Below, one piece after another: positions 7,606-64,000 of a DNA stretch of 64,000 bases. The notes below the pieces were generated by a model, which was not told the origin of the DNA, searched no databases, and saw nothing but the letters and a program-made list of their open reading frames with translations. Both the position numbers and the translations under genes were made by a program. Location of the stretch: positions 232-64,231 of the forward strand of contig CADBUF010000012.1 of NCBI GenBank assembly GCA_902797795.1, given 5' to 3'. Position 1 is the first letter of the stretch. The number at the start of each line of letters is the position of its first letter. Source of the stretch: an uncultured Erysipelotrichaceae bacterium. Lineage in GTDB: Bacteria > Bacillota_I > Bacilli_A > RFN20 > CAG-826.

Positions 7606-7608
7606 TTT

Positions 7609-8916
7609 TTATTCTCCTTCTTTGCAATTTATGAGACACCCTTTTCTTGGGAAAAATTTACCATCTTTGAGAACGAATTTTCCTCTTATAATTGTGCTTT
7701 CAACGGTGATATTAACAAGCATGTTCTCATATATTGAATAATCAACAGACCCATGTGGTTTTCCAATGGTTTGATTACGTCCAGAAATAATTGCAAAATC
7801 TGCAAAATTTCCAACTTTTATTTCACCTTTTCCGGCAAATCTCTCTAATTTTGCAACATTTTTGCTCATCTTATCAATTACCTTATCGCCAAAGATTTTG
7901 TGCATAACAACAAAGCTAGTTTCAATTCCACCAACACCTAATGGCATGCCTTTGAGATAGACATGACTCTTCTTATCTTCTATATTAAATGCGCAATGAT
8001 CTGTACCAATTGTAGAAACATAATCAATGCAGTCGATAAGTAGTTTTCTCTCAGATTCAGAACGAAGTGGAGGAGCAAAGGTAAATAAATAACCATTTTT
8101 ACCCTTCAATACATTATTGTTAAACACAAAATATTGTGGACAAGATTCAATAAATATATTAATTCCAAGGTTTTCACCATATTGATCATATATTTTCTTA
8201 AGCGTATCACCACTCGAGCAGTGGACCATGTATAAATAGCCACCTGTCTGTTTAGCAAATTTGCATAATTTCAATGCTTCTGAGGACTCAGCATAAGAGC
8301 TTCTAGCCTCAGAAAGTTCCATATAAGTCAATCGCTCATCACGATTAATCAAATCATCGTTTTCAATGTGAGCGCAAACCATGAAATTATATTTTTTGGA
8401 TAATCTTAATAATTTCTTAATATCCCTATCATATGTACGACGATGAGTTTCAGAATAAGTAGTAAATAATTTGATGGTGTTCATGCCAAGTTTTTTCATC
8501 ATTAATACATATTCTTCTAAATCACCATTAGGCTCGCGTATACACGCATGAAAATGGTAATCGCAATTACAGTTTTTCGCTTTTGCCAATCTTTCAAAGA
8601 AAGATTTCTTAAGTTCTTCAGCGTTTCTTGTAGGGTCCAAGAAATCTACGATGGTTGTAACTCCACCATAAATGGCGCTCTTTGAACCGTAATAAAAATC
8701 ATCTCTACTAGGAATAGTACCACAGAACAAATCAAAATGAACATGAGGGTCAATTAATCCAGGAATGACTTTTTTGTTCTTAGCATCAACCGTTTCTAAG
8801 GATTTGAAAACAGTTTTGCCTAAATAGACTATCTTTCCATTTCTGACTCCTATGTTAAGACGTTTAAAAACGCCTTCATGATAAACTAGACCATTCTTAA
8901 TAAAGAGATCAAACAT
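7609..8916 (-). CDS. cyclic amidohydrolase (dihydropyrimidinase / D-hydantoinase-like)
   Basis: 435 aa. IDPHVHFD metal-binding motif near the N-terminus, amidohydrolase fold. Paralogous to the 55768-57147 gene. Confidence 0.65.
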   Translation of the reverse strand: MFDLFIKNGLVYHEGVFKRLNIGVRNGKIVYLGKTVFKSLETVDAKNKKVIPGLIDPHVHFDLFCGTIPSRDDFYYGSKSAIYGGVTTIVDFLDPTRNAEELKKSFFERLAKAKNCNCDYHFHACIREPNGDLEEYVLMMKKLGMNTIKLFTTYSETHRRTYDRDIKKLLRLSKKYNFMVCAHIENDDLINRDERLTYMELSEARSSYAESSEALKLCKFAKQTGGYLYMVHCSSGDTLKKIYDQYGENLGINIFIESCPQYFVFNNNVLKGKNGYLFTFAPPLRSESERKLLIDCIDYVSTIGTDHCAFNIEDKKSHVYLKGMPLGVGGIETSFVVMHKIFGDKVIDKMSKNVAKLERFAGKGEIKVGNFADFAIISGRNQTIGKPHGSVDYSIYENMLVNITVESTIIRGKFVLKDGKFFPRKGCLINCKEGE

Positions 8917-8917
8917 A

Positions 8918-11242
8918 TTATTTCCTTAATTCTTTTAAGCCCTTGAGAATCTTTTCAGGGGTTATTGGAAGTTTATGAATACGAACACCAGTGGCATTAT
9001 AAATAGCGTTACAAATAACCGCTGGAGGTGTATCAATACCAATCTCACCAACAGACTTAGCTCCAAATGGACCAGTAGGTTCATAAGAATCGGCAAATTC
9101 CGTGGTTAATTTATGAATTTCTTTATGTGTAGGGATGTGGTAATTGAGGAAATTATTAGAAAGAAGGTTTCCTTTTTTATCATATTTAACATCTTCAAAA
9201 CACGCCATACCAAGTCCTTGAACAACACCACCTTCAACTTGTCCTCTAGCTAACATTGGGTTAATTGTTGTTCCACAGTCAGTAACTGTAACATAGTTAC
9301 AGATTTCATATTCTCCAGTTTCTAAATCGACTTCAACTTCAGCATAAGCAGACATAAATGGAGGAGGAGAAACATGTCCAAAATAAGATTCGGTAACTTG
9401 GACCTGTTGTTGATTTTTATTGTATAGAAGTTTGATTGATAATTCGTTTAAAGTGATAGATTTCTCACCAGAAATAAAGATTTTGCCGTCAAATTTAACA
9501 GTTTCTTCTTTTACTTCAAGGAATTCAGCAGCTTCTTTAATTAAACGTTTTCTCATCTTCTGAGCTGCTTTCCACGCAGCATTGCCAGAAACATATGTAG
9601 TACTAGAAGCATAAGCCCCACAATCAAATGGAGTTAAGTCTGTGTCAGAAGAATAGATGATAACTTTATCAACTGTAGTCTCTAATTCTTCAGCAACAAT
9701 TTGGCTAATAATTGTGTCGCTACCTTGACCAATATCAGTAGCACCGACAGTTACCATATAGGTACCGCCATCATTAAGTTTGATAGAACAGCTACCCATA
9801 TCCATGAATGGAATACCACTACCTTGCATAGCGATAGCCATACCATATCCTCTGACTTTAGTTGGGCTAATAACTTTTCTTGGCCAATTATGTTCCCAAT
9901 CAATTAATTCCGCACCACGTTTAATACAATATGGGAGCTTACATGATTCCATTATCATAGCTGTACCTTTGGTACCTTCACCCATAATCTCAAAGATAGG
10001 AGATGTTTCCTTTTCTCTCATGGAATTCAATTCTCGAATCTTTTTAGGATCCATTCCAAGCTTTTCAGCAAGAATATCTATAGTTGATTCAAGAGCATAG
10101 TTGCCTTGAATAGCACCATATCCTCTATAAGCACCAGCAGGGACGTGGTTAGTGTAAACGACACGGCCACCAAAACGTACCGCATCAACTTTGTTATATA
10201 AAGGAAGAACCTTACTACCAACAATCATAAAGACTGTTAAAGAGTGTTCTCCATAAGCTCCTGTGTCACTTAATGAACGACAATCAATCGCGTTGATTCT
10301 TCCATCTTTCATCGCTCCGATTTTAAGACTAATTTTCATTGGGTGACGAGTGTAAGAAGCACCAAAGACTTCTTCACGAGTATAAACAAATCTACTTGGC
10401 TTACCAGTTCTTAATGTTGTTAAAGCGCAGAAAAATTCACCATGGAAACATTGTTTTCCACCAAAACCACCGCCAACTCTCGGTTTAATAAAACGAATTT
10501 GGTGTAGAGGAATGCCTAAAGTTGTCGACATAATTCTTCTCATGTGGAATGGTGTTTGTGTAGAAGAATAAATAACTAATCTATTGTGTTCATCTAAACG
10601 TGCGTTACTACTATGAGTCTCAAGCATAGCATGCGCTTGAGCTTGTGAATAGAAAGTCTCTTCCACAACGACATCACTCTTAGCAAGTTCTTTTTCCACA
10701 TCGCCAACTTCCATCTCATAAGTGGCAGCAACATTCTTCTTTGGTTCGAAACCAATTGGGAACATTTCATAAATTCCATCTTCTGGATGGATAATTGATT
10801 TATTTTCATATGCGGTCTCAAAATCTAATACAGGTTCAAGGACCTCATATTCAACTTTTATTAATTTTAGAGCGTCTTCAGCAATTTCTTCATTAATAGC
10901 GGCAACCATTGCAACTTCATCACCAACATAACGAACATATTCATCTAAGATGAATTTGTCATGTGGAGATGGTTCTGGATACCCTTGTCCTGCTCTACTC
11001 ATAGAAACATGAGGGACATCTTTATAAGTTAAAACAAGGGCAACACCATTAAGTTTTTGAGCTTCGCTAACATCAATATTCTTAATATGAGCAAAGGCGT
11101 GTGGAGAACGTAAAATTTTAATGACTAAACTTCCTTGAACGGCTAAGTCATCTGTATAATAACTGCGGCCTTGCATTAAACCTTTTCCATCGACGGAGTG
11201 GGTTTTATTATTAACAACGCGCATCTTTTTCTTATCAACCAT
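8918..11242 (-). CDS. molybdopterin-binding large subunit, xanthine dehydrogenase family (enzyme 1)
   Basis: 774 aa. VGGGFGGKQ motif, Mo-hydroxylase large-subunit conservation throughout. Confidence 0.85.
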   Translation of the reverse strand: MVDKKKMRVVNNKTHSVDGKGLMQGRSYYTDDLAVQGSLVIKILRSPHAFAHIKNIDVSEAQKLNGVALVLTYKDVPHVSMSRAGQGYPEPSPHDKFILDEYVRYVGDEVAMVAAINEEIAEDALKLIKVEYEVLEPVLDFETAYENKSIIHPEDGIYEMFPIGFEPKKNVAATYEMEVGDVEKELAKSDVVVEETFYSQAQAHAMLETHSSNARLDEHNRLVIYSSTQTPFHMRRIMSTTLGIPLHQIRFIKPRVGGGFGGKQCFHGEFFCALTTLRTGKPSRFVYTREEVFGASYTRHPMKISLKIGAMKDGRINAIDCRSLSDTGAYGEHSLTVFMIVGSKVLPLYNKVDAVRFGGRVVYTNHVPAGAYRGYGAIQGNYALESTIDILAEKLGMDPKKIRELNSMREKETSPIFEIMGEGTKGTAMIMESCKLPYCIKRGAELIDWEHNWPRKVISPTKVRGYGMAIAMQGSGIPFMDMGSCSIKLNDGGTYMVTVGATDIGQGSDTIISQIVAEELETTVDKVIIYSSDTDLTPFDCGAYASSTTYVSGNAAWKAAQKMRKRLIKEAAEFLEVKEETVKFDGKIFISGEKSITLNELSIKLLYNKNQQQVQVTESYFGHVSPPPFMSAYAEVEVDLETGEYEICNYVTVTDCGTTINPMLARGQVEGGVVQGLGMACFEDVKYDKKGNLLSNNFLNYHIPTHKEIHKLTTEFADSYEPTGPFGAKSVGEIGIDTPPAVICNAIYNATGVRIHKLPITPEKILKGLKELRK

Positions 11243-43236: not shown

Positions 43237-46200
43237 TTAATCGTCCCTTTCAAAGTAATCTAAGGAAATCAAAGACTTAATAGCCTTAGTTAAATATTCT
43301 TGGTCAGTAATTGGCCATTTATAGCCTAAGCGGTAAAGCGCTTTAATCGAAAATGAATTATCGGTAAGGATATAAGAGTGAGAATGATTATCACTACTTG
43401 TATAAGTAATTAAAGCAGACACTTTCTTGCTCTTAACGTCATCATTTGTAGCTTTAATAACCTCATCCATAAATTCTTTATCCCCAACTTTTTCAATCTT
43501 TAAGCCACAGTCATTCATTGCTTCAATCACATCACCCATTTCTACAGGATGAGAATTTGCACTATGGAAGACGGTGAATTCTTTTGGAGCGGTCGCTAAA
43601 ACGAGAATGCTCTTAGCGACTTCATCAATTGGAGAGAAGTCGGTCGTTTCATCCAAAGAAGAGATTGGGAATTTTCCTAAAGCGTAATAACCTCGTAGAG
43701 ATCGCATAAATCCGTTAGTAATAGAGTTAATTTGGAATTCTCCATCGCTTTGACGTGACATCAAATTACCGACACGAACAATCTTTCCATCTAATCCATC
43801 TTTATTAATTGCCTCTAACATCGCTGCTTCCGCCATAAACTTAGAATGGATATATTTGTTAGAAATATCTTGTCCGATGTCTAATTGGTTTTCTTTCATA
43901 CGGAAGTTTTCAGCGAACTTATGGTCAATATTTTCGCCCGCAACTGATAAAGTGGAGATTTGAATCATTCTCGCATTATGCTTTAAAGCGATTCCAATGA
44001 GGTTTTTCACCCCTCCAACATTAATTTTTTCAATGATATCATCATTTGAGAAATGTTTAACAATCGCTGCTGAATTAATAAGTGTGTCAAATTTGATATC
44101 TTTGAGTTTATCGGTTAAGTTCTCGTCTGCAATATCTCCATCAACGATATGAATAAAGCTATCAAGTTCTTCAGTAAATGGAGAATCGAAATAATATTCA
44201 AGTAATAGAGAAAGTCTACTATGTAAGGAGATTTGTTTACTTCTTACTAACACATATGTTTCTATGTGCTGATCAATTAATTCTTTAAGAATATGAATTC
44301 CTAAAAAGCCAGTCGCACCAGTTAAAAGGACAACACCTAAATCTCTTTCTTTATGAATATCATCAACATATTCAATCGTGTTTTTATTAAGCGCTGCATA
44401 TTTATTATCCTTAGATTCTTCTACTGCTTTTTCTTCTTCCACCACCTCTTCATCTTTATTAATTAATGAAGCAAGTTCAAGGGCAGTAGAATGTTCAAAA
44501 ACATCTTTATAGGCAATTGGTAAGCCCTCTTTAAGAGCGAGCATTGCAACTTTTGAAGCGCTTAAAGAAGTACCACCTAATTCAAAGAAATCTTCATCGA
44601 TTCCGATATCTTGTTTTCCAAGGGCTTTAGCAAAGATTTCACAAATCGTTTTTTCAGTTTTGTTTCTAGGTGCTTTCTTTTCTTTATTAGAGGAAGTAGA
44701 AACAATTTCTGGTAATGATTTCTTATCAATCTTGCCATTAGGAGTAAGAGGGATACGATCAAGTTGCATCATTGCTTTAGGAATCATATATGGGGTAAGT
44801 GATTTTGCCATATATGAAGTTAAAGTTTCTTTATCTAAAGGTTTTGACGCGGTGTAATAAAGCGCTAAATAGTCGCCATCAACATCATTATTTTTCACTA
44901 AAATGACGCATCTAGTGACGTCTGGATGAGAATTACAAACGTTTTCAATCTCATCTAATTCAATTCTTAATCCATGTAATTTTATTTGGTTATCAAGACG
45001 TCCAAAGAATTCGGTGTTACCTTCATTATTCATTCTAGCAAGGTCACCACTTCGATAGGCTCTTTTACCGTTTAAATCAATAAATGAGGCTTTGGTTTTT
45101 TCTTCAAGTTTATAATAGCCAATACCAACACTATCACCGGCAATAGTTAAATCACCAATCGCATTAATTGGTAAAATATGACCAGCCTTATCCAAGATGT
45201 AATAGCTAGTGTTAGCAACAGGTTTACCAATAGTGACATATTTATCAGTAATAAAGGTCATTGATGAAGTAATCGTTGTTTCTGTTGGACCATAACCATT
45301 ATCAATCAGGCAATCAATGCCATGTTTTCTTATACGATCCACTAATTCATAAGGAACAGCCTCTGCTCCCATATCAAGCACTTTGAAGTTCTTTAATGCT
45401 TCAACAAATTCTAGAGTATCTAAAACGTTAGAAACGTATGAAGGAGTTAAGAACATAATGTTAACTCCATATTTCTTTAATGTTTGTGATAATAAAAGTG
45501 GGTTTTCAATCTCTTCTTCACTAGCGATCACTGCTTGATAACCATGAGAGAGAATGACACATTCTTCTTGTAAAGAAGCATCAAAAGCAAAAGAAGCAAA
45601 CGAGCAGCTAGACACTTTGTCTTTAATAATGCGATATTCGTTAGTGGCTAAATTAGCGCCATCTAAGACATAATTTGATAAATTCTTATGACTAATCATC
45701 ACCCCTTTAGGTTTACCAGTGCTACCAGAGGTATAGATGATGTAACATAGTGAATCTAGTGGGATACCAATATTTAAATTGCTTGTCTTATTAGATTTCA
45801 AAATGTCTTCAATTAAAAGAACTTTAATCTTTGTCTTTTTAATGAGGTCATGTTTTTCTTTTTCAATATCTTTAGTGGTTATTAAAATCTTCGCGTCACT
45901 ATCGGTGATGATATATTCAATACGATCATCAGGATATTTAGGATCAATAGCGACAAAGGCTCCACCCGATTTAAGAATACCTTCTCTAACGAAATAAGCA
46001 CTTACTCTTCTAGGCATGAGCATGATTACTCTTTCACCAAGAGCGACTTTATCTTCAGACAAAGCATGAGCGACTTTATTCGCGTTTTCGTTAAATTGTT
46101 TATATGTATATTCTCCATCAACACCCGCTAAAGCGAGTCTATTTGGATATTTCTCCACTATTTCTTCTACGATCTTAGGGTAGGCTTTATTTGAAGGTTT

Positions 46201-49200
46201 AACATATGTTTGGTTAAATTCTTCATATAACTTTTTATCAACTTCTGGTAAGCAGTTAATTTCACTGATGTGTTTTTTAGATGTCACTTCCAGTAACGCC
46301 AATTCAAATAATCTAGCAAATGATTCAATCGTATTCTTGTTATACATTGATTCATCATATTCAAAATGAAGTTTGAATTTATTATCTTCGATGAAAACAT
46401 CTAAAGAGAATAGTGATTTCGCATCATCTGAATCCAATATCACACTTTCAGCTTTCTTATTACCGATTTCATTAAATTCAAATAAGTCTCCTTGATAAGC
46501 AAACATCACATCACTAGTGATATTAAAGGCTGAGGCTATTTCTTGGAAAGAATAGATGTCGTTTATTTGTGAAGACTCTAATTGTTTCTTCATCTCTTCT
46601 AGTAGAGATAACACTTCATCATTTTCTTGATATTTAACATAAACTGGTAAAGTTTTTACCATCATCGAAACAGTGTTCATGTTCTTAGATGAATTTCTCC
46701 CATTATAGATAGTGACAAACAAAGCATCCTGCTTATAAATAAATTTAGAGAAGGTAAAACCAAATACGAAGTTAGTGATCGCATTTAGGGTTAAATTGTT
46801 CTTACTAGCGAATTCTTTAATCGCTTTGACATCAATATTAGAATAGATATCTTCAACATGTAATTTAGCGACTTCTTCAGTCTTTAAATCTTTCTTCATG
46901 AGATATCCATCTTCGACATCTTTCAATAAAGTAGCGTAATATTCTTTCGCATTTTCATAGGCTTTTGAATTACGTTTATCGTTCTCTTCTAAAGCAAGTT
47001 CATAGCCAGTGAAGGTTTCTTTTTCAAGCTTTTCACCAGAATAAGCTTTATTAATATCATTTAAAAGGATATTTTCACTAGTGCCATCACAGATAAGATG
47101 ATGAACATCTAAGAAGAGGTAATTATTATCTTTACATTCATAGATTTCAACACGATATAAAGGACCACCAACGATTTCAAAAGGTCTAACCAAAGATTTT
47201 TGATCGAGCTTATTAGCTTTAATAATTTCAACTTTTGGTTCAGCTTCTTTTCTTATAGCCTTGATGTTCCCATCATCGTCCATCTTCAAAGTTGTTAAAA
47301 GATATTCATGAGCCTTTAAGGCCTTAATCACACTTTCATTAAGTTTATTGATATCGATAGACTTATCAATTTTAAATAATAAAGGAATGTTATAATTTGT
47401 ACTTCCAACTTTAGCGATTGATTCAATAAAGATACCTTCTTGAGTCTTGGTTAATGGGTATTCACTTAATAAATCATAAGTCTTGTTTTCATCTTGTTCT
47501 TCCATCAAAGAAGCGAGTTCTTTAATGTTAGGGTGCTCGTTTAAATCTTGAGAAGAGATCTCTTTATTAAATGCTTTAGATAATCTCACAGTTAAAGTGA
47601 TAGAAGAAATAGAGGTAATACCAGCCTCATATATATCAGTAGTCACTCCAAAAGAATCATGACCTAAAATCTCTTTTATAATATCAAAGATCTTTTGTTC
47701 ATTTTCAGTGCTAGGTTTAACGACATCCTCCACTTTCAATTCAGGAACTGGTAAAGCTTTTTTATTCACTTTTTGGTTTTGATTAAGTGGAATTGCATCT
47801 ATTTGCATAATATATGGGGGGACCATATAAGGTGGCTTTTTACTTTTAATGAAAGCTTTTAAGTCATCAACGTCAATCTTTTTATCACTGACGATATAAC
47901 CCACGATATATTTAACTCCAGCGGGGTCCGCAAAATCTTTAACAGTCGCGTCTTTAATGTCTGGATATTGTCTAATAACTTGTTCGACTTCACTTAATTC
48001 CACACGGAAGCCACGTATTTTCACTTGGAAGTCTTTTCTTCCAATAAAATCGATATCTCCATTTGGAAGGAATCTTACGATATCACCAGTCTTATAAAGT
48101 TTTTTAAATCGAGGATCATCATCGAAAGGATTAATCAAGAAGGCCTTTTTATTTTCTTCGTCTCTATTTAGATATCCACGAGACACTTGAGGACCAGAAA
48201 TATATAACTCACCTTTAGCAAGATATGGTAATCTCTTTTTATTTTCGTCTAATACATAGAATTTATAATCGCTTAAAGCGTGACCAATTGGGATACGATG
48301 ATAAAGTTTATCAACATGATATCCGGAACAATATATTGTTCCTTCTGTTGGTCCATATAAATTGAATAGCTTATAGTTTTTAGGTGGGTCAAGAGGGACT
48401 AACTTTTCTCCTCCTACAGAAATAGTTCTAATCGTTTCAAATGTTAATTCACTCACTAATTGTCGACCTACTTGAGTAGTAAAGAAGGCATCAGTAATTT
48501 TATTTTCATTTAAATATTTATTTAGTCCAATGAGATCTAATCGCATCTCTTCAGGAATGATATAAATAGTTCCCCCGACCACGATAGTTGGATATAAATC
48601 AAGCATATCAGCGTCAAATCCATATGAAGCATAGGCACTCACTCTCGCGTCATGTTGGAGATTTCTAAAATTAATATCAACATTACAAACTGACATGATG
48701 TTTTGGTGTTCTAACATTACTCCTTTAGGAACACCAGTGGAGCCAGAAGTATATAACATGATAAAAAGGTTTTCAGGTCTAGGTCTATTTGTAGGTCGAG
48801 ATTCATCTTTCAATTTATCAAATTCATCAAGATAAATAACTGGGCCTTTATATTCATCGAGTAAATCAATATATTGTCTTTCGGCGATAACAACTTTACT
48901 AGATGCATCCTTAACCATGAAGTTAAGTCTTTCTTTAGGATAAGAAACATCTAATGGTTGATAGGCTGCACAAGATTTAATAACTCCTAAAGAGGCAATA
49001 ACAATATATTCACTTTTCGAAATAAGGATTGAAACTTTGTCTTCCTCTTTAACACCAAGTCTAATCAATTCATTAGCGATTCTATTTGAATAGAGGTCAA
49101 CTTCCTTATAGGTGTAACTCTTATCTTTATAGACCACTAAGGTTTTATTGGGCTCCTTATTAAGCCAATAATCAAATTTATCAAGAATTGTTTTTCCCTG

Positions 49201-50472
49201 TTCAAGTTGACTCATATCAACATGATTAAAGTCATCTAAAATCTTGATTTGTTTTTCATCTAAAAGTTCAATTTCTTCAAGTTTTAATGGTGATTTGAGC
49301 AGTTTTTTAAGAATTATGTCATATAAATCAATGATTTGATTAATCGAGTCATCACTATATAAATCACTTCTAAATTCAAACCAAATATAGAACTTATTTC
49401 TATCTCTATGGATCTCAATAGACATGATTCCTTTTCCATCTTTTTCTTCGATTTGTTTAGCCACTACTTCTTTGTCGTTGAATGTTGTTTTAAACATATA
49501 ATCACCTTGATAGGCAAATAAGATTTCAGGAGAGACACCTAAATTTGTAACAACTTGAGAGAAGGAATATAAATCATGTTTAACATTATTAATCAATTCG
49601 TCATTAACCTTATTAAACATTTCTTTGGAAGTTTTGATATTTTCTAAATTGAGATAAAGAGGGAATGTCCTTACAAACATACCAAAAGTATTTTCTAATG
49701 TTTCATCTCTACCATTATGAATGGAAGCAATTATTACTTCTTTGTCCATGTTCACTTTTGAAAGGAGGAACATAAAACAAGAGATAAAATAGCTTGATGT
49801 TTTAATTCCTTGCTTATGAGTAAATTCACGAACCTCACTAGCGTCAACTTTTAATTCTTTTTTAATCGTATGATGACTAATTTCTTCTTTTTTATAGTCC
49901 TCGACTATTGTACTTTCAGTGTCGATTCCACCATAGTTGTCTTTATAATATTTTTCAGCTTCTTTAAATTCCTTGGATTTTAGAAGTTTTTGTTCGCGCT
50001 TACAGTAGGAGAAGACATCTTCTTTTTCAGAAGGTATTTTCTTTCCTTTATATAAAGCATCTAAGGAATCAATGAATAATTTAATTGTGTTACCATCAGC
50101 GATGATGTGATGGAAATCAAAAAATAGATAATATTCTTTATTAACTTTTAAAAGCTCAAAACGATATAAGTGATGGTTAAATAGATCAAATTCCTTCACC
50201 AACCCTTTTTCATTAATCTTTTTTAATTCTTTAAGAGGGACTTTGATATCTTCTACATGACATTCTTTGTAGAAGTTTCCTTCATCATCTTTTTTAATGA
50301 TCGTAAATATCCCTTGATGGACTTTACTAAACTCATTAATAGCGGCCTCTATTTTCTTGGCGTCAACATCTTCTCCTAAAGGTAATAAAGAAGGGAGGTT
50401 ATATTTAGTTGTCGGTTTTAAACATTCAAACAAAATCCCTAATTCAGATTGCGATAAAAGATACTTTTCCAT
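43237..50472 (-). CDS. dimodular non-ribosomal peptide synthetase, C-A-T-C-A-T-R (terminal thioester reductase)
   Basis: 2411 aa. C1 HHIIADG (aa 121-127). A1 cores LYTSGSTGVPKGV / NLYGPTEG / YKTGDIVRF...GRKDFQVKIRGFRVEL with FDAD (Asp235). T1 GITSIS. C2 HHLICDG. A2 YTSGSTGKPKGV / NGYGPTET / YRSGDLARM...GRLDNQIKLHGLRIEL with FDAS. T2 LGGTSLSA. R domain Rossmann VVLLTGATGFLGIHIL. Confidence 0.95.
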   Translation of the reverse strand: MEKYLLSQSELGILFECLKPTTKYNLPSLLPLGEDVDAKKIEAAINEFSKVHQGIFTIIKKDDEGNFYKECHVEDIKVPLKELKKINEKGLVKEFDLFNHHLYRFELLKVNKEYYLFFDFHHIIADGNTIKLFIDSLDALYKGKKIPSEKEDVFSYCKREQKLLKSKEFKEAEKYYKDNYGGIDTESTIVEDYKKEEISHHTIKKELKVDASEVREFTHKQGIKTSSYFISCFMFLLSKVNMDKEVIIASIHNGRDETLENTFGMFVRTFPLYLNLENIKTSKEMFNKVNDELINNVKHDLYSFSQVVTNLGVSPEILFAYQGDYMFKTTFNDKEVVAKQIEEKDGKGIMSIEIHRDRNKFYIWFEFRSDLYSDDSINQIIDLYDIILKKLLKSPLKLEEIELLDEKQIKILDDFNHVDMSQLEQGKTILDKFDYWLNKEPNKTLVVYKDKSYTYKEVDLYSNRIANELIRLGVKEEDKVSILISKSEYIVIASLGVIKSCAAYQPLDVSYPKERLNFMVKDASSKVVIAERQYIDLLDEYKGPVIYLDEFDKLKDESRPTNRPRPENLFIMLYTSGSTGVPKGVMLEHQNIMSVCNVDINFRNLQHDARVSAYASYGFDADMLDLYPTIVVGGTIYIIPEEMRLDLIGLNKYLNENKITDAFFTTQVGRQLVSELTFETIRTISVGGEKLVPLDPPKNYKLFNLYGPTEGTIYCSGYHVDKLYHRIPIGHALSDYKFYVLDENKKRLPYLAKGELYISGPQVSRGYLNRDEENKKAFLINPFDDDPRFKKLYKTGDIVRFLPNGDIDFIGRKDFQVKIRGFRVELSEVEQVIRQYPDIKDATVKDFADPAGVKYIVGYIVSDKKIDVDDLKAFIKSKKPPYMVPPYIMQIDAIPLNQNQKVNKKALPVPELKVEDVVKPSTENEQKIFDIIKEILGHDSFGVTTDIYEAGITSISSITLTVRLSKAFNKEISSQDLNEHPNIKELASLMEEQDENKTYDLLSEYPLTKTQEGIFIESIAKVGSTNYNIPLLFKIDKSIDINKLNESVIKALKAHEYLLTTLKMDDDGNIKAIRKEAEPKVEIIKANKLDQKSLVRPFEIVGGPLYRVEIYECKDNNYLFLDVHHLICDGTSENILLNDINKAYSGEKLEKETFTGYELALEENDKRNSKAYENAKEYYATLLKDVEDGYLMKKDLKTEEVAKLHVEDIYSNIDVKAIKEFASKNNLTLNAITNFVFGFTFSKFIYKQDALFVTIYNGRNSSKNMNTVSMMVKTLPVYVKYQENDEVLSLLEEMKKQLESSQINDIYSFQEIASAFNITSDVMFAYQGDLFEFNEIGNKKAESVILDSDDAKSLFSLDVFIEDNKFKLHFEYDESMYNKNTIESFARLFELALLEVTSKKHISEINCLPEVDKKLYEEFNQTYVKPSNKAYPKIVEEIVEKYPNRLALAGVDGEYTYKQFNENANKVAHALSEDKVALGERVIMLMPRRVSAYFVREGILKSGGAFVAIDPKYPDDRIEYIITDSDAKILITTKDIEKEKHDLIKKTKIKVLLIEDILKSNKTSNLNIGIPLDSLCYIIYTSGSTGKPKGVMISHKNLSNYVLDGANLATNEYRIIKDKVSSCSFASFAFDASLQEECVILSHGYQAVIASEEEIENPLLLSQTLKKYGVNIMFLTPSYVSNVLDTLEFVEALKNFKVLDMGAEAVPYELVDRIRKHGIDCLIDNGYGPTETTITSSMTFITDKYVTIGKPVANTSYYILDKAGHILPINAIGDLTIAGDSVGIGYYKLEEKTKASFIDLNGKRAYRSGDLARMNNEGNTEFFGRLDNQIKLHGLRIELDEIENVCNSHPDVTRCVILVKNNDVDGDYLALYYTASKPLDKETLTSYMAKSLTPYMIPKAMMQLDRIPLTPNGKIDKKSLPEIVSTSSNKEKKAPRNKTEKTICEIFAKALGKQDIGIDEDFFELGGTSLSASKVAMLALKEGLPIAYKDVFEHSTALELASLINKDEEVVEEEKAVEESKDNKYAALNKNTIEYVDDIHKERDLGVVLLTGATGFLGIHILKELIDQHIETYVLVRSKQISLHSRLSLLLEYYFDSPFTEELDSFIHIVDGDIADENLTDKLKDIKFDTLINSAAIVKHFSNDDIIEKINVGGVKNLIGIALKHNARMIQISTLSVAGENIDHKFAENFRMKENQLDIGQDISNKYIHSKFMAEAAMLEAINKDGLDGKIVRVGNLMSRQSDGEFQINSITNGFMRSLRGYYALGKFPISSLDETTDFSPIDEVAKSILVLATAPKEFTVFHSANSHPVEMGDVIEAMNDCGLKIEKVGDKEFMDEVIKATNDDVKSKKVSALITYTSSDNHSHSYILTDNSFSIKALYRLGYKWPITDQEYLTKAIKSLISLDYFERDD

Positions 50473-50477
50473 AATTG

Positions 50478-51092
50478 TTATTCCTCCAAAGAATTGATTT
50501 TCTTAATATTTATATTAAATGGTTTTTCCTCTTTTAAAGTAAGAGATAACGAATAGCCATCATATATCATCGATTTAGTGTAACCACCATATCTATTTCC
50601 TTCTAAAGGAAGGCCCTTTATTTTTCTTATATCCATAAGCGAATTAGAGAAACATTTAATAAGGCTTTCTTTATTAGACCAAAGAAGGAATAAATCATTG
50701 ATATCATTAATTTCTTTTTCTTCATCCACTAATGAATATTTAATCGCCCCAATTTTGCTTTGATCAATGCGTTCAATATCCACTCCAACATCTCTATCTA
50801 TAGAGACAGCAAGAACAACATATTCCCCTGAATGTGACAAATTAAAATATGGTCCATTTTCCATATAAGGCTTACCATTATCGGTAAATTTAATCTCTTT
50901 ATGTGGAAGAAATTTATATAGTAAATACCCTCCACCCAAGGAGAGAATTTGATCCTTTTTTTGAACGAACCTATTAGCTTTTTCAATTCGACTTTTATCA
51001 ATATGAGAAACAATAAAAGAATAATTGTCGTTTACAAAAGAAGTATGAAGAATATAGACATTAATTTCATTCATTAAAAAATATTCTAACAC
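50478..51092 (-). CDS. Sfp-type 4'-phosphopantetheinyl transferase
   Basis: 204 aa. VGVDIERI and WSNKESLIKC (W..KE...K) motifs. 5-nt gap to the NRPS start. Confidence 0.8.
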   Translation of the reverse strand: MLEYFLMNEINVYILHTSFVNDNYSFIVSHIDKSRIEKANRFVQKKDQILSLGGGYLLYKFLPHKEIKFTDNGKPYMENGPYFNLSHSGEYVVLAVSIDRDVGVDIERIDQSKIGAIKYSLVDEEKEINDINDLFLLWSNKESLIKCFSNSLMDIRKIKGLPLEGNRYGGYTKSMIYDGYSLSLTLKEEKPFNINIKKINSLEE

Positions 51093-57330: not shown

Positions 57331-57356
57331 GAAAAAAACCGAGCTTTTACACTCGG
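57331..57356 (-). terminator. rho-independent terminator ending the minus-strand accessory island
   Basis: On the minus strand: CCGAGtgtaaaagCTCGG hairpin followed by TTTTTTT. Confidence 0.6.
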
Positions 57357-57629
57357 CATTTACTTAATTAGATTGCGCCAATAGGTATATCGCTCCACAC
57401 TAAATAGTCAATAAGCAATTTATAACGGAGTTAATAATATAGAGCATTTAACAAAATTCCATCAAAATACTTAAGCGACGAAATCAAATATCTTTTAGCT
57501 ATATATTTGTTCCCACCATGCCTAAATCTTGGAAAAAAGAAAATTCACATCTTTTTAACACTTTTTTCATTTGCTGGTGCGGTTAATACATAATATTCGT
57601 TTTTTCAGGTGTTTAATGTCATTAAACAA

Positions 57630-58862
57630 TTATTTAAGAAGAGAAGTTAGAAATACCTCGGCTTGGACAGCATTAACACTTTTGTCTATTCTACTTGTAT
57701 CCGTTAGTATCTCAACATAAATCAAGGACTTTTTGCAATCATCATTAATCGCAACCAAATTTCCTATTTCTCTATCGAAATTATCTCCAGTAAGAGAATA
57801 AGCTACCTGAACATGATTACCTGAATAATTAAAATCAATTTCGCCTTCAACGTTGTTTTTCTCACCAATTATTAATAAACCAGTCGAGTCAATCTTATTT
57901 TGCTTTAAATGTAGAAATACGGCAGTTTCTAATGCGGAAGTTAGTTTATGATTCGGAACTTTGCATTGTTCATACGCAATGCCACTATCACAGCAGTAAT
58001 ATTTTTTATTTAGGCCAATCATTTCTAGTGGTGTTTTTCTGCCATACGATTCGTTGTCAAAAGGACTAAATAAGAAAGATTTAGTTACAATGTCTAAATA
58101 ATCTTTAACTTCCCTTCGTAATTGAGCTTTTTGACTTTTATCAAAGCCATAATGTTTGCACATTTCATCGACAACTCTAACAGTACTAAAAGGAGTAGAG
58201 CCCGAGAATAGATTAGACATAATACTATCCATGTCTTCTTTTGATAGATATAAAAAGTTTTCTTTTATTGTTCTATCCACAATATCTAATTGATATATCT
58301 GTTTGTAAATATAATCTATCTCTGTATCTTTTGATTTTGTATTTACAACTGTTGGCAGACCACCATATTTCAAATAATCAAGCAAAGAGTATGTTTTCTT
58401 AACAGCTCTAATTTCTTTGAAAGTTAAAGGATAGAGATATACTATATCCGCTAATTCTTTAAAACTTTCAACTATATCAGCGGACAAAGTATTGCTGTTC
58501 GAACCAGTAACATACAAATCAATATTTGGATAATCATAGATAAAATCTTTAAGAACTTTGTGATAGTTTTCTGCTTCTTGAACTTCATCTATGAAAATGA
58601 TTTCTGGATTGCTGTCTACGACGGTTTTTAATAGTGATCTGAACAACTCTTCGCTTTTATATTTCTTGTGCTTTCCAGTTAAATATATTTTTGTAAAAGA
58701 ATTCTTACCGAGCTTATCTTTTTCAGAAACATATTCATAAAATAAAGTATCTAGAAGATATGTCTTGCCACATCTTCTAACTCCGGCAACAATTTTAATC
58801 TTTCCATTATGAAGTTTTTTGTATAATTCTTTTACTTTGGTGTTTCTTTTAAATTTGCTCAT
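57630..58862 (-). CDS. AAA_14 + DUF4143-type P-loop ATPase
   Basis: Walker A GVRRCGKTY, Walker B IIFIDEVQ. Probable start ATG at 58862 (GGAG 9 nt upstream, 1 nt after the upstream TAA) rather than the ORF-track start 58877. Confidence 0.7.
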   Translation of the reverse strand: MSKFKRNTKVKELYKKLHNGKIKIVAGVRRCGKTYLLDTLFYEYVSEKDKLGKNSFTKIYLTGKHKKYKSEELFRSLLKTVVDSNPEIIFIDEVQEAENYHKVLKDFIYDYPNIDLYVTGSNSNTLSADIVESFKELADIVYLYPLTFKEIRAVKKTYSLLDYLKYGGLPTVVNTKSKDTEIDYIYKQIYQLDIVDRTIKENFLYLSKEDMDSIMSNLFSGSTPFSTVRVVDEMCKHYGFDKSQKAQLRREVKDYLDIVTKSFLFSPFDNESYGRKTPLEMIGLNKKYYCCDSGIAYEQCKVPNHKLTSALETAVFLHLKQNKIDSTGLLIIGEKNNVEGEIDFNYSGNHVQVAYSLTGDNFDREIGNLVAINDDCKKSLIYVEILTDTSRIDKSVNAVQAEVFLTSLLK

Positions 58863-58863
58863 A

Positions 58864-59958
58864 TTATTGGACTCCATAAGTTAAAAAGTTTTTTACGCTC
58901 ATATATGTAACACCGTGTTCATCGACATAAGTATCAATATCGTCCATGATAATAATGAATCTTGGATACAGCGATCTATATCTATAGTATCTCTCCAAAG
59001 AATCTTGATTTTCTGTAAAATATAATTTCAATAAAAATTGTTTGGTTTTTGAAACCACGAAATATGTATTTGCTAAAGCGTTAGAATGCTTATTCTCGCT
59101 ATTGCGATAGACCGCTTTGTATGTGAGATTATTATCATTAATTAATTTAGCAATAATCGCAGTTTCATAAACGCTTCTTCTTTGCTTATCTATATTAGTT
59201 ACACTCCTACATATTTGTGATATGTCCGCTGGATAACAGTATAAATAATTGGGTAGTTTGTCCATTTTTTTTAAATCAAATCTGTTTAATGCATAGAAGA
59301 ATCTATGATGTGCAGCGTAATTGAAAATGCCAACAAATGTATTTAAACTAACGTCTGGCGACATATTCTCAAACATTCCTCTAAAGTTTACAGGATAGCC
59401 GACATTTTTCGCTATATAATCGCATATCTTTTCCACTTCGTTTTTATACTTGAATGTTGGAATATAATCAAATAGTTTTTCATCAGTGTCTTCAACATAA
59501 TTAAGTAAATCAAAAGTATGATGATTATCCAAGAAATCGCTATACAAAAAAGGTGGAAATGCAATATACTGTACTCTTCCTCTAATCACGGTTGATCGAT
59601 TACCTAACAAATCTTCTAAATGAATATTGGATGAAGCGATTAAATCAACATTCGAATTACCAGCAAATAGATTGATAATCCCATCTATATCGTTATAATC
59701 TGGTAGCCTATCAATTATAAAAATCTTTTTTACACTATCTTCTGTTGAAAGGTTTTCTGAAAGATGTTCTAACAAATCAACCTTTGTAAATACACTGCCT
59801 ATATAATAAACATTCTTAAAAGTTTGTCTAATTTCATCCACTAGAAATTCTTTCATGGTTTTTGAATAAGCGCCACAAAGGATTTTTACTTTTCCATTTC
59901 CTAAGCTACTCTTTATTTCTTTTTTAATATTATCTCTCATGATTAAACTATAAAGCAT
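58864..59958 (-). CDS. degenerate paralog of the downstream AAA_14-type ATPase (pseudo-ATPase; Walker A/B not conserved)
   Basis: 364 aa, alignable with the downstream ATPase (KVKILCGAYSKT vs KIKIVAGVRRCGKT; IFIIDRLP vs IIFIDEVQ). Translationally coupled to the downstream gene. No convincing SD at either candidate start. Confidence 0.5.
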   Translation of the reverse strand: MLYSLIMRDNIKKEIKSSLGNGKVKILCGAYSKTMKEFLVDEIRQTFKNVYYIGSVFTKVDLLEHLSENLSTEDSVKKIFIIDRLPDYNDIDGIINLFAGNSNVDLIASSNIHLEDLLGNRSTVIRGRVQYIAFPPFLYSDFLDNHHTFDLLNYVEDTDEKLFDYIPTFKYKNEVEKICDYIAKNVGYPVNFRGMFENMSPDVSLNTFVGIFNYAAHHRFFYALNRFDLKKMDKLPNYLYCYPADISQICRSVTNIDKQRRSVYETAIIAKLINDNNLTYKAVYRNSENKHSNALANTYFVVSKTKQFLLKLYFTENQDSLERYYRYRSLYPRFIIIMDDIDTYVDEHGVTYMSVKNFLTYGVQ

Positions 59959-60113: not shown

Positions 60114-63113
60114 TTAATCCTTCTTTTTTGGGCTACTGCAGAATTCAAGCAGTTTTAGTTGAGGGATTCCTGTTATTTTAGAAATATTAGCACACTGCTC
60201 ACTATTTAAACCATTTTTTATGGCAAACACACGCACAACTCTATTAATAATTAATAATTTTTCTTTATTCTTTTCTGGTTCTTTATAGAAATATTTTATT
60301 TGGCTACAGAAAGCATCAAAGTTTCCTGTCTCAGCATAAGTAATAATCTTAAATAATTTTTTAAAGAAAACATCATCCTCTAGTTTATTAATTATTGGCA
60401 ATGATACTCTCGAACTAATGATGTTTGACATTGTTGTTTCAATATTCAAAACAAAAGTAATTAGCATATCATAAAAAGCGTGAACGATATCCATATCTTC
60501 AACTTGTTTAATAATGCGTTCATTAATACCATTTTCTTTTGCGTTGTCAATCCATTGCTTTTTGGCATTATTAAAATCTTCTTCAACTTCTTTGATTTCT
60601 TCTTCACTGCTAAAGCTGAAAAGCAAGTTCACAATTTTCAAAGATGCAGAGATTGTTTTATCCAAAAACAAATATCTTGTCTCGGAATCTATTTCGCTAG
60701 GAAAACCAGCAATTACTTTGCAAGATATCTCAATTAATTTTGCAATTTTATTAATGGCGTTGATTTCTTTATCTTCTTCTACATCAAAAGCCTTCCTTTC
60801 ATTATCTCTTGCTGATTCGATTCTTCTTCTATTTTCTGTATCCAATCTTTCATATAAAGCTTTCTTGTTCTCAGCTTGTCTTTTGGTTTCGGGAATCAAC
60901 TTTTTATTAAGTTTTAGAATAGGATTATTTTTTGTTTCAAAGTTTATTTCCTCAAACTTGCTTAAAAGCTTGTCTAAAGTGTCATGGATATCAAAAAACA
61001 CGTTGATAGTTTTAAGCTGGTAAACGACGAAAACAAAGATGTCGCCATTTATTCCGTAAACAATATTATCAACAATCTTATTGAAATAATCTGTTTTGCC
61101 AGATTGGTAAAGCCTGATAATTTCTAGCGATGCAAAATAAGCTAAAAATGAATTTCTTTCAAACCTATACTCGTTGTCTTCTTTATAGACAAGTTTTGAA
61201 CCAACTAGAATTCTAAGAACATCTTCGTCGGTTAATTTGATATGAGTAAAGTCTTTGCGTCTTTCTTTTACACATTTTGAAATATCTGCAAAGTCAAAAG
61301 AAGATCCTTGCTTAACAAACACCGTGTGCAAAGCAAGAAGCTGGATAACGCTTATACAATCATCTAAAGACTCTCCGTTAGATGCGTTTAATATGGCGCT
61401 TCTCAAAGAATGTTCAAAAATAATGGTGAAAGCGTTTTGGGTATCACGTTCTTGGTAGAGTTTATTGTTATATATTTGAGAAATTAATGGTAGCAAATAG
61501 CTCGGATCAGAAATATCCAAAACACTACAGGTTGAAATAGAAGCCTCAATAGCATTTGTAATTAATGACAATTCATTTTCGCTAATAATATTCTTTTGTT
61601 TTAAATATTTGTTATAGAATTCGATTCTTTGCTTAATTGAGAAACCACCTATGATGAACGTTTCGTTTTCTTCGAAATATCTCTTTATTAAATTACTTAG
61701 TGATTCGTTCTTTTGAATAGAGGAAACGATAATAATGCCAAACTTTTCTTTCAAATAATCCAGTATTTCATTCTTTTTGTAATCCTTTTCAACACAATCA
61801 AAATTATCAATTAAAATAATCTTTTCATCTAATGGTGATTCAATAAAATCATCATATACATTGATTGCACTTCTATATTCCTCATTAAAAGCGTTTTTAA
61901 TCGCTGTCTCAATGTTGTTAGGATATTCATATTTGACATCAAGGTATATGCACCATTTGTCATTTTTAAAATATTCAAACAACCTATGCAGCAAGATACT
62001 TTTTCCACAATTTGGATTTCCGAACAAATAAACTTTATGTTGCTTTCCGATATGGTCTACAAAAGATTGAAAATCGTTAATGTTTTCCTGCTTGCCGGAA
62101 GCTTTCAATAAAGGCATTACAAAAATGTCTCTCTCACGAACATCATCTTTCAACAAAGGGTTGATAATAGTCGAAATAAAAGTGTCTTTAATTAATAAAG
62201 GCGTGTTAGTTTTTAGATTCTCTTTTTCAAAATGGTGCCTTTTGAATTTATTCTTTTTATAATCAAACACAAATTTAAACATTTCGCAACGGCTGCAATC
62301 ATCGTTGACATAATAAGCGGCCAAACTACCAGTTATTGCTCCTGAGTTTACATTTAATTCGCCGCCTTTTGAAATGATTGTCGAGCCTTCTTCATAATCA
62401 ATTCTTACTTCTTTAATTTCACAAGTATGCTCATGACCATAAAATCCAAATGTAGCAACAGTATTCTCAAAGTCTTCAAGAGCTGTTTTTGCACTGTACA
62501 CAAACCAATCTGGTCTATGATGTGAAACAAGTATCTCTATGGTTGTCTTTCCTTTTTGAGGATCTCCATGAATTGGATAATTGTTTGGTAGCAAATAATG
62601 AATTCCTTTATCTTTATCATTAGAGCCCAACATAGAAAAAGGCGCAGAATTGACTAATACAAAATGGAATCTTGTTTTATTGGTATCAAACGTCTTATAG
62701 ACAATACTATTTTTTGAAAAATCAATGCCGTATTTCTTGCAATAATTGATTGACTGTTTTTGGTTTTTAAGCGTTTCAACATACAGTTTCTTAACGTCGC
62801 CACTTTTCATGTTTGTGATGGAACGATACTGTTCTTGCTTGCTTTCATCAATTGATATGTCATGATTCCCAGGGACAAGGATTAATTGGCAATCAACACC
62901 ATATTTTCTGTCTATTAATCCTTTTATGTTGTTAATCAAAACATCAAAAGCAGATATCTCTTCATCAAGATGTTGTTGGCTAAAGTCACCAGTAAAAATA
63001 ATAAAGCAATTCTCAACCGCAATACCTGATGGCAATTCAGAAACAATGCCATTGATATCAACCGTAGAAGAATCCCCAATATGTATATCGCTTAAATGTA
63101 ATAATAGAGTCAT
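60114..63113 (-). CDS. calcineurin-like metallophosphoesterase domain fused to STAND/AAA-type P-loop NTPase and C-terminal alpha-helical region
   Basis: Likely start at 63113 (MTLLLHLSDIHIG; AGGGGAG RBS), not the ORF-track 63197. Phosphoesterase motifs DIH / FTGD / PGNHD / GHEHT. Walker A LFGNPNCGKS, Walker B IILIDNFD. About 400-aa helical C-terminus. Confidence 0.65.
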   Translation of the reverse strand: MTLLLHLSDIHIGDSSTVDINGIVSELPSGIAVENCFIIFTGDFSQQHLDEEISAFDVLINNIKGLIDRKYGVDCQLILVPGNHDISIDESKQEQYRSITNMKSGDVKKLYVETLKNQKQSINYCKKYGIDFSKNSIVYKTFDTNKTRFHFVLVNSAPFSMLGSNDKDKGIHYLLPNNYPIHGDPQKGKTTIEILVSHHRPDWFVYSAKTALEDFENTVATFGFYGHEHTCEIKEVRIDYEEGSTIISKGGELNVNSGAITGSLAAYYVNDDCSRCEMFKFVFDYKKNKFKRHHFEKENLKTNTPLLIKDTFISTIINPLLKDDVRERDIFVMPLLKASGKQENINDFQSFVDHIGKQHKVYLFGNPNCGKSILLHRLFEYFKNDKWCIYLDVKYEYPNNIETAIKNAFNEEYRSAINVYDDFIESPLDEKIILIDNFDCVEKDYKKNEILDYLKEKFGIIIVSSIQKNESLSNLIKRYFEENETFIIGGFSIKQRIEFYNKYLKQKNIISENELSLITNAIEASISTCSVLDISDPSYLLPLISQIYNNKLYQERDTQNAFTIIFEHSLRSAILNASNGESLDDCISVIQLLALHTVFVKQGSSFDFADISKCVKERRKDFTHIKLTDEDVLRILVGSKLVYKEDNEYRFERNSFLAYFASLEIIRLYQSGKTDYFNKIVDNIVYGINGDIFVFVVYQLKTINVFFDIHDTLDKLLSKFEEINFETKNNPILKLNKKLIPETKRQAENKKALYERLDTENRRRIESARDNERKAFDVEEDKEINAINKIAKLIEISCKVIAGFPSEIDSETRYLFLDKTISASLKIVNLLFSFSSEEEIKEVEEDFNNAKKQWIDNAKENGINERIIKQVEDMDIVHAFYDMLITFVLNIETTMSNIISSRVSLPIINKLEDDVFFKKLFKIITYAETGNFDAFCSQIKYFYKEPEKNKEKLLIINRVVRVFAIKNGLNSEQCANISKITGIPQLKLLEFCSSPKKKD

Positions 63114-63596
63114 CAAGTACTCCCCTATCTCGTATCTATAAAATATTATGTTATAAGAAATCTTATTAATAAAGAAAATAAGCATACAAATGAACAATAA
63201 TAAGAATAATAATCTTTAAATAATAAAATTTCGGAAACACGACAATCATCTTCGTGAGTAATCATATGTTAACATATGTAAGATTTAAACCATAGCTAGT
63301 AGACTTCATAGATCATATCTTGCGATATTGGATCGAGAAAGGCCCATTTCATCCGCGAATTGTGTTTGGCTTAAGTTGAATAGTTTTCTAATTGTTTTTT
63401 ATGTCTTTTTTACATTGAATGTTTTCACAAACAAATTGTAGCATTTGCTACATTTTATTTTAAGATTGCACTGATTAAATAGAAAAGACCTATTTATAGG
63501 TCTTTAATATCTATATCAGTAGTAATTGTGGTTGTCTAAGGTCAGTTATTCAATTTGATCTAAAAATTCGTATAGTTTTTGAAATTAAAGGCATTA

Positions 63597-63656: not shown

Positions 63657-64000
63657 TTATTTTTCAGTGATTACTACTTTAATCTCACTAACTCCTTTAA
63701 CAGGAATTAAAGTAAAGGAATAATCTTGTTCATTAAATGGAACATTAGCCCCGTTATAAGTAATAACGATATTCTTATCAAATAAAGAGTGTTCATCATC
63801 ATTACCCGCTAATTTGTAGCTAACAGGTTCTCCAACATTAACTGGTTCACTAGTTAATCCTTCGATTTTATATCCTTCGCTGATATTTGCAGTTAGGACT
63901 ACTTTTTGATTAATAGTTTGGACTAAGAATTCATATTCGCTTCTAGAAGCGTCAAAAACATAAGTTGCAACTCCTAATTCATTAACTAAGTAATCAGTTC
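63657..64000 (-). CDS. C-terminal part of an unknown (probably surface/beta-rich) protein; gene starts beyond window end
   Basis: Open frame to window edge ending ...NIVITYNGANVPFNEQDYSFTLIPVKGVSEIKVVITEK, stop TAA at 63657-63659, followed by a terminator. Confidence 0.35.
   Translation of the reverse strand, partial: TDYLVNELGVATYVFDASRSEYEFLVQTINQKVVLTANISEGYKIEGLTSEPVNVGEPVSYKLAGNDDEHSLFDKNIVITYNGANVPFNEQDYSFTLIPVKGVSEIKVVITEK

Follow-up and report, generated by a model that had tools for sequence, protein, structure and literature searches.

The 64,000-nucleotide stretch of DNA analyzed here (the window; positions 232 to 64,231 of contig CADBUF010000012.1, assembly GCA_902797795.1, from an uncultured Erysipelotrichaceae bacterium) carries on its minus strand, at 60114..63113, a gene that we take, with a probability of roughly 0.8, to encode a member of the DS-8 family, an NLR-like (STAND) anti-phage protein made of a single polypeptide. 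DS-8 is a single-protein metallophosphatase-NACHT anti-phage system of E. coli (DeWeirdt et al., DefensePredictor, Science 2026, PMC13092281). The anti-phage role is argued from the end-to-end homology of the window protein to this validated system, together with the variable, defense-gene-rich context of its gene. The original prediction, made from the sequence of the window, had recognized a tripartite layout of effector, NTPase and helical putative sensor. Both the end-to-end homology to DS-8 and the domains of the structural model confirm that this layout is real, but it is already known: it is the architecture of DS-8, and the window protein is a divergent new member of that family, not a new kind of system. 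With it, the DS-8 architecture, validated in E. coli, is now also seen in a far-diverged lineage of uncultured gut or rumen Bacilli, and comparison with such a second, distant family member would help to find what the phosphoesterase acts on and what triggers the sensor.

For the trigger, the oligomerization, the substrate and the fate of the cell, we infer only from homology to DS-8 and from analogy with Avs and NLR proteins. The C-terminal helical domain (residues 654-999) would sense infection, the most likely cue being a phage protein. The NACHT-like module, composed of a nucleotide-binding domain, a helical domain and a winged-helix domain (NBD-HD-WHD, residues 336-653), would bind ATP and oligomerize, and the oligomerization would render the N-terminal binuclear metallophosphoesterase (residues 1-305) active. 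This enzyme would hydrolyze a phosphodiester or phosphoanhydride, and our best guess for its substrate is a small molecule of nucleotide type (nucleoside triphosphates, or a linear or cyclic nucleotide) and not DNA. Phage replication would thereby be stopped, with the probable loss of the infected cell. The features of the gene to which these steps are assigned are the following.

60114..63113, minus strand: complete coding sequence of the DS-8-like metallophosphoesterase-STAND protein, 999 amino acids plus stop (open reading frame list, translation, NF053861 match)
63120..63125, minus strand: Shine-Dalgarno sequence GGGGAG, 6 nt upstream of the ATG at 63113 (upstream sequence)
62394..63113, minus strand: calcineurin-like binuclear metallophosphoesterase core, residues 1-240 (PF00149, ligands, model of the N-terminal domain, Foldseek)
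63081-63089, minus strand: DxH motif (LSDIHIGD), residues 9-11
62985-62990, minus strand: GD motif, residues 42-43
62859-62870, minus strand: GNHD motif, residues 82-85
62520-62522, minus strand: His198 (motif SHHRP)
62427-62438, minus strand: GHEH motif, residues 226-229
62109..62393, minus strand: beta-rich cap subdomain (residues 241-305) and linker (306-335) after the core (AlphaFold2 strands 244-300)
61644..62108, minus strand: P-loop nucleotide-binding domain, residues 336-490 (motifs, conservation, nSTAND3, Foldseek)
61998-62021, minus strand: Walker A motif GNPNCGKS, residues 365-372
61797-61820, minus strand: Walker B motif IILIDNFD, residues 432-439
61155..61643, minus strand: helical domain, residues 491-557 (R496, P537), and winged-helix domain, residues 558-653 (beta-hairpin 642-651, F651) (model, alignment)
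60117..61154, minus strand: C-terminal all-helical domain, residues 654-999, putative sensor (model, homology to the DS-8 clade)

The homology to DS-8 runs from one end of the protein to the other. The NCBIfam model NF053861 (DS8_antiphage) aligns its positions 1-972 of 994 with residues 6-961 of the window protein (E 2.8e-73), and the architecture is therefore not a chance pattern. A homolog search retrieved 123 proteins, nearly all of about 1,000 amino acids; an identical protein (P0001, 100%) is present on seven contigs, and the distant homologs P0083 (1055 bits) and P0119 (897 bits) exceed the NF053861 cutoff of 790. When profiles of the clade of the window protein (A3, 14 sequences) and of the DS-8 clade (A4, 16 sequences) were compared with hhalign, they aligned with a probability of 100% (E 8.3e-75, 951 columns, 17% identity), in an alignment that starts at the first motif and reaches column 983, in the C-terminal helices. 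BLASTP of the window protein against P0083 gave 21% identity over 930 columns. An exhaustive profile search covering 1.84 billion cluster representatives (clusters at 50% identity) recovered 4,212 of them at E<=1e-30, the best 150 of which were nearly all about 1,000 amino acids long and matched end to end. Judged by these sequences, the DS-8 family is large and uniform, and the window protein lies on a divergent branch of it. The layout with a phosphoesterase effector in the STAND position, which the original prediction had called uncommon, has by now been characterized as that of DS-8, in a family of about 4,200 clusters at E<=1e-30. Plasmid-borne copies of the family occur in C. botulinum, Paenisporosarcina and Pseudomonas; no relative was found among the GTDB species representatives when these were scanned with the single window protein, and no family copy was found in phage records with tblastn.

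The comparison with DS-8 can be brought down to single residues. The E. coli protein (WP_032203427.1, with the working identifier MNAC in the supplement) was mutated to D52A, N84A and K375A, and the catalytic and ATPase mutants abolish defense (PMC13092281). From the identity of the motifs and the residue numbering, we infer that D52, N84 and K375 correspond to D43 (the Asp of GD), N83 (the Asn of GNHD) and K371 (the Lys of Walker A) in the window protein. In a conservation alignment of 54 sequences (A1, identity down to 14%), which underlies all residue counts given below, D43 and N83, which would match defense-essential residues of DS-8, are invariant, and K371 is retained in at least 90% of the sequences. 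Like DS-8, the window protein has about 1,000 amino acids and the order metallophosphatase, NACHT-like P-loop NTPase and helical C-terminus, and it is the product of a single gene without a conserved partner.

The start of the protein is well defined. The open reading frame on the minus strand spans 60114..63197 (1027 amino acids counted from a TTG), and the true start had been proposed 28 codons inside it, at the ATG at 63113 that gives the product of 999 amino acids. The GGGGAG Shine-Dalgarno sequence agrees with this proposal, and so do the homologs, essentially all of whose N-termini coincide with this start in the alignment (consensus MKxLxLHLSDIH). Open reading frames on the plus strand within the gene (e.g., 60514..61023) were treated as shadow frames of an AT-rich region.

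The N-terminal domain presents all the features of the calcineurin-like metallophosphoesterase superfamily, namely the motifs, the seven metal ligands and the alpha/beta sandwich fold. The Pfam family Metallophos (PF00149) matches residues 4-230 (E 4.1e-8; 34.3 bits, for a gathering score of 21.5), and the full motif set that had been read from the sequence is present, with DxH, GD, GNHD, His198 and GHEH. Conservation of the metal ligands had been set as a check in advance: D9, H11, D43, N83, H198, H227 and H229 are all invariant in the 54 homologs, as are the catalytic histidine H84 and D85. Modeled alone, the domain reached a pLDDT of 90.7. Its top match in the PDB with Foldseek was B. subtilis YydB (9a6c_B, E 2.2e-14, query TM 0.61), over both the core and the beta cap, in an entry (9a6c, the YydD-YydB complex) that is an integrative model and not an experimental structure. 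The best matches among solved structures were GpdQ, Rv0805 and SMPDL3A/B (E 5.7e-9 to 1.4e-7), in the order GpdQ (5.7e-9), SMPDL3B (8.4e-9), Rv0805 (3.6e-8) and SMPDL3A (6.9e-8), with weaker matches to Vps29, MPPED2 and LpxH. GpdQ (2zo9/3d03), Rv0805 (3ib7/2hy1) and SMPDL3A/B (5ebb, 8w6r, 5kar) share the binuclear fold and the full ligand set with the N-terminal domain, from which they differ in sequence (12-17% identity, TM 0.4-0.6) and in being stand-alone, constitutively active enzymes. A sequence-profile search of the PDB gave Lmo2642, GpdQ and Rv0805 at 1e-6 to 1e-3 and SbcD (2q8u) at 0.18. RecA concatemers that topped this search were set aside as an artefact made of six repeated weak P-loop matches with individual E of 11-13.

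The effector had been described as of either Mre11/SbcD or phosphodiesterase type. The second option is the one that stood, through GpdQ, Rv0805 and SMPDL3A/B, whereas Mre11/SbcD is not among the best 50 Foldseek matches of the N-terminal domain in the PDB. Since these neighbors lack Mre11/SbcD and the ranking of the PDB sequence-profile search agrees, the modeled fold favors a phosphodiesterase whose substrates are small and nucleotide-like over a nuclease that cuts DNA. A nuclease is nevertheless a possibility that we keep as the lesser one, because the TM-scores are modest: the family and the switch would be the same, and the activated phosphoesterase would cut phage and host DNA or RNA, in the manner of the Mre11/SbcD branch and of the Cap4 and Mrr effectors of Avs3/Avs4. 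Most characterized STAND defense effectors are indeed nucleases or NADases, as in Avs and bNACHT, and activation by oligomerization is easily rationalized for a nuclease. The family member P0081 is annotated as 'DNA repair exonuclease', and SbcD does appear, weakly, in the PDB sequence search. P0083 also has a weak match to the SbcD model TIGR00619, but its 22.6 bits are far under the threshold of 77.65, and the structural neighbors are GpdQ, SMPDL3A/B, Rv0805, Vps29, MPPED2 and LpxH instead.

Less probable again is a different use of the same enzyme. Instead of being a toxic effector, the phosphoesterase might act as an infection-gated 'eraser' that removes a nucleotide messenger or a nucleotide needed by the phage, or the Bacilli clade could differ from DS-8 in its substrate or trigger, perhaps together with the PDC-S01-like ATPases encoded downstream. 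The authors of the DS-8 study liken its metallophosphatase domain to human SMPDL3A and themselves raised an SMPDL3A-like eraser (PMC13092281). A bacterial NLR-like sensor would in that case control immunity by destroying a small molecule.

Other systems share parts of the proposed DS-8-like protein. YydB of B. subtilis (9a6c_B) has the same combination of phosphoesterase core and beta cap; unlike the window protein, it is a separate protein of 481 amino acids, paired with YydD and without fusion to a STAND NTPase. This modeled likeness hints that the same phosphoesterase module may be used by a separate two-protein system, YydB-YydD, on whose function no literature was found. DS-9A (NF053862) shows weak homology over the phosphoesterase motifs I-III (E 1.8e-5, residues 4-108), and the phosphoesterase domains of DS-8 and DS-9A are homologous according to the DS-8 authors (PMC13092281). 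DS-9A differs in being the phosphoesterase of an anti-phage two-gene system, with a HAD phosphatase as the second gene, and it has neither the NTPase nor the helical tail. The main text of a 2026 survey of STAND proteins (PMC13581612) does not mention phosphoesterase effectors, and a search of the literature on nSTAND3/nSTAND4 and bNACHT proteins with a phosphoesterase found nothing usable.

The central part of the protein is folded as a STAND-like NTPase, in agreement with the original prediction. The full-length AlphaFold2 model (pLDDT 88.2, pTM 0.80) contains strands and helices at residues 336-490, helices at 493-555 and a winged helix with a beta-hairpin at 559-651, which is the succession of nucleotide-binding, helical and winged-helix domains. 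With the whole model, the top Foldseek match in the PDB was again the YydB model (6.8e-12). The solved structures that matched the NTPase part were headed by NLRC4 (3e-8), followed by NLRP9, NLRP3 and NLRP7 (about 1e-7), Avs3 (1.3e-6) and Avs4 (7e-6), with SSO1545 and the ORC/Cdc6 AAA+ proteins ranking under these NLR and Avs proteins; the N-terminal part matched SMPDL3A/B and Rv0805. An SMC or ABC ATPase in the central region was the other possibility singled out beforehand for a check: neither class appears among the PDB matches of the whole model, the Pfam scan of the window protein has no SMC or ABC match at E<=1, and no ABC signature motif was found in it.

The sequence details of this module resemble those of NLR and NACHT proteins. 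The proposed Walker A (GNPNCGKS) and Walker B (hhhhDNFD) motifs are present, at residues 365-372 and 432-439, and the latter has the NACHT-style form hhhhDxxD. It is followed, after strand 5, by the motif GFSxKQRxEFYxKY, which conforms to the GFSxxxR..FY pattern of these proteins and includes the invariant R496 at the start of the helical domain. The winged helix contains the motif 'YRFERNSFLAYFA', with the invariant F651, corresponding to the pattern YxFxxxxhxxYF. G370, the Walker B residue D436 and F695 are invariant as well. Among the homologs, several exceed the Pfam gathering scores, with nSTAND_NTPase4 at 48.3, 29.7 and 28.0 (gathering score 27), the match falling on the winged-helix stretch, and NACHT in one case at 28.0 (gathering score 26.7). 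The STAND motifs whose presence in an alignment had been asked about gave a divided answer. A GxP-type proline is there (P537, in 48/54 sequences), starting the helix 537-549 of the helical domain, with a preceding Gly that is not conserved; the sensor-1 Arg is not conserved in the family. Because the sequence details are NACHT-like and neither the sensor-1 Arg nor the winged-helix His is conserved, the central module is best labeled as STAND-like with NACHT affinities. In overall plan, the window protein resembles the NLRs (NLRC4, NLRP3) and the Avs/bNACHT proteins in its succession of effector, NBD-HD-WHD and C-terminal putative sensor. It is unlike them in those same two residues, in its metallophosphoesterase effector, in having no LRR, TPR or WD40 repeats and in a sensor that is not hypervariable.

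The C-terminus is helical as predicted, with AlphaFold2 helices at residues 654-992 and a pLDDT mostly above 85. Its description as repeat-like did not stand, as profile-profile self-comparison of the C-terminal segments with hhalign gave probabilities of at most 1.8% for internal repeats, and no repeat family (LRR, TPR, WD40) was found there in Pfam at E<=1. It is also shorter than the 400 amino acids first given, since residues 491-653 are assigned to the NTPase module, which leaves a putative sensor of about 345 amino acids (654-999). A sensor function is ascribed to it solely from its place in the protein. In the near clade, its mean pairwise identity is 0.31-0.39, versus 0.25-0.36 in the other domains, and a C-terminus that varies so little points either to a trigger that is itself conserved or to a role in the structure.

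Several of our results weigh against reading the window protein as a single-protein anti-phage system of the DS-8 family. It scores 247.1 bits against NF053861 and thus does not reach the equivalog cutoff of 790. Unlike DS-8, which is proteobacterial, it comes from an uncultured gut or rumen bacterium of the Bacilli/Erysipelotrichaceae, and the two are only 17-21% identical; with such an identity and score, a function identical to that of E. coli DS-8 is an extrapolation from sequence. In the NTPase module, nSTAND3 reaches 25.3 bits, under its gathering score of 27.2, and the Pfam scan gives the window protein itself no nSTAND_NTPase4 or NACHT match. The position of the sensor-1 Arg after strand 4 is not conserved across the 54 sequences (columns 465-468 are variable, with S/V/T at the end of the strand), nor is that of the winged-helix His (column 653 is variable, with Y/R/N/D). 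The Walker A Lys is replaced by A, R or S in four proteobacterial members (P0072, P0075, P0090 and P0101), which retain the phosphoesterase ligands and may be ATPase-independent or decayed variants. The putative sensor does not exceed the catalytic domains in variability, contrary to what is typical of pattern-recognition STANDs; the sensors of many Avs and NLR proteins are hypervariable. The predicted substrate class derives from fold neighbors alone, with TM-scores of 0.4-0.6. Finally, a consensus scan found no terminator-like site in the 155-bp gap between 60114 and 59958 that separates the gene from the next ones.

This last point concerns the immediate neighborhood of the gene, for which three further features of the window are needed.

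57630..59958, minus strand: two PDC-S01-like genes (364 and 415 amino acids) that overlap by 14 nt, downstream of the DS-8-like gene (PADLOC)
63484..63505, minus strand: terminator-like hairpin at the end of a 652-amino-acid gene, separating it from the DS-8-like gene (consensus scan)
63657-64000, minus strand: 3' end of the 652-amino-acid gene (stop at 63657), which continues at 7571-9529 of the contig L001 described below (mapping)

The product of 415 amino acids, which contains an AAA_14 ATPase domain, matches PDC-S01 from end to end (E 4.2e-53). In that of 364 amino acids, the match is confined to the C-terminal half (E 6e-10) and the P-loop is degenerate (GAYSKT versus GVRRCGKT), so that by sequence the two look like a pair of active and inactive paralogs. 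Unlike the case of DS-8, co-transcription of the window gene with these two genes is possible. A three-gene system, in which the DS-8-like protein would act together with both PDC-S01-like ATPases, is an improbable extension of this arrangement. The three genes share one strand, with a strong terminator-like site only after the third (57338-57357, consensus scan) and an overlap between the PDC-S01-like genes, and the same arrangement recurs in the two long contigs on which the identical protein is encoded. The homologs P0004, P0005 and P0012 (59%, 40% and 30% identity), however, have unrelated downstream genes: the PDC-S01-like genes are not next to them, and BLAST comparison found no common neighbor among the three. 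Defense genes, moreover, often cluster without functional coupling, and PADLOC lists PDC-S01 as a candidate system by itself. DS-8, for its part, works alone in E. coli (PMC13092281). Small open reading frames (106 and 110 amino acids) downstream of P0004 and P0005 were considered as a conserved partner and rejected, as they are unrelated.

The surroundings of the gene fit a DS-8-like defense protein better than a housekeeping one. Over 13,887 nt, the window and the ENA contig ERZ27280358:k141_525775 (L001) agree with 100% identity, and the gene order that this contig shows along the minus strand is, upstream, a radical-SAM/SPASM peptide cluster, a 107-amino-acid gene overlapping an AbiEii gene, the 652-amino-acid gene and the DS-8-like gene and, downstream, the two overlapping PDC-S01-like genes and an operon of hydantoinase, M20 peptidase and permease. 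Seven related metagenome-assembled genomes have the adjacent hydantoinase (86-92% identity) and peptidase (92-95%), and an eighth has the hydantoinase at 78%. The DS-8-like and PDC-S01-like genes were found in none of these eight loci, within the DNA fetched, and the region is therefore a variable island. Its GC content is 29-31% over 58-64 kb, versus 34-36% in the adjacent hydantoinase operon, which fits a horizontally acquired island. The genes near P0004, P0005 and P0012 include a DpnII restriction-modification system, SRA-NUDIX, NERD, AIPR and a KAP NTPase, and the plasmid copy of C. botulinum has a DncV-like cyclase at a distance of 6 kb. That the gene encodes a housekeeping or regulatory enzyme, such as an SbcCD-like repair fusion or a cyclic-nucleotide phosphodiesterase gated by ATP, is accordingly the reading to which we give least credit. 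Public annotation of the family members is generic ('metallophosphoesterase', 'predicted phosphodiesterase') and would allow it, and the fold neighbors Rv0805 and GpdQ are metabolic or signaling enzymes. Against it stand the absence of the gene from the DNA fetched for eight related genomes that have the neighboring hydantoinase, the variable, defense-gene-rich context with its low GC relative to the flanks, the end-to-end homology to a validated defense protein and the absence of ABC/SMC features from the window protein. A search of BFVD returned generic NLR-like, AAA+ and phosphatase matches only.

Of the genes upstream, the protein of 652 amino acids has no Pfam or PADLOC family above threshold, with only a sub-threshold CBM_X2 match. 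A relative with 32% identity is found at the same spot, inverted, in one of the related metagenome-assembled genomes (L007), and the 652-amino-acid gene could be a further gene of the island. Just outside the window, at 6190-7378 of L001, lies a gene for an AbiEii nucleotidyltransferase toxin (Pfam E 3.9e-14). The gene of 107 amino acids that lies upstream of it and overlaps it has no family match and is presumably its antitoxin, although a typical AbiEi is much longer than 107 amino acids. Further upstream, the radical-SAM/SPASM cluster contains two ABC exporters, one of them with a C39 peptidase domain. Elsewhere in the window, at 43237-51092 on the minus strand, a non-ribosomal peptide synthetase of 2,411 amino acids is encoded, with two condensation/adenylation/carrier modules and a reductase-type domain, adjoined by a phosphopantetheinyl transferase of 204 amino acids.

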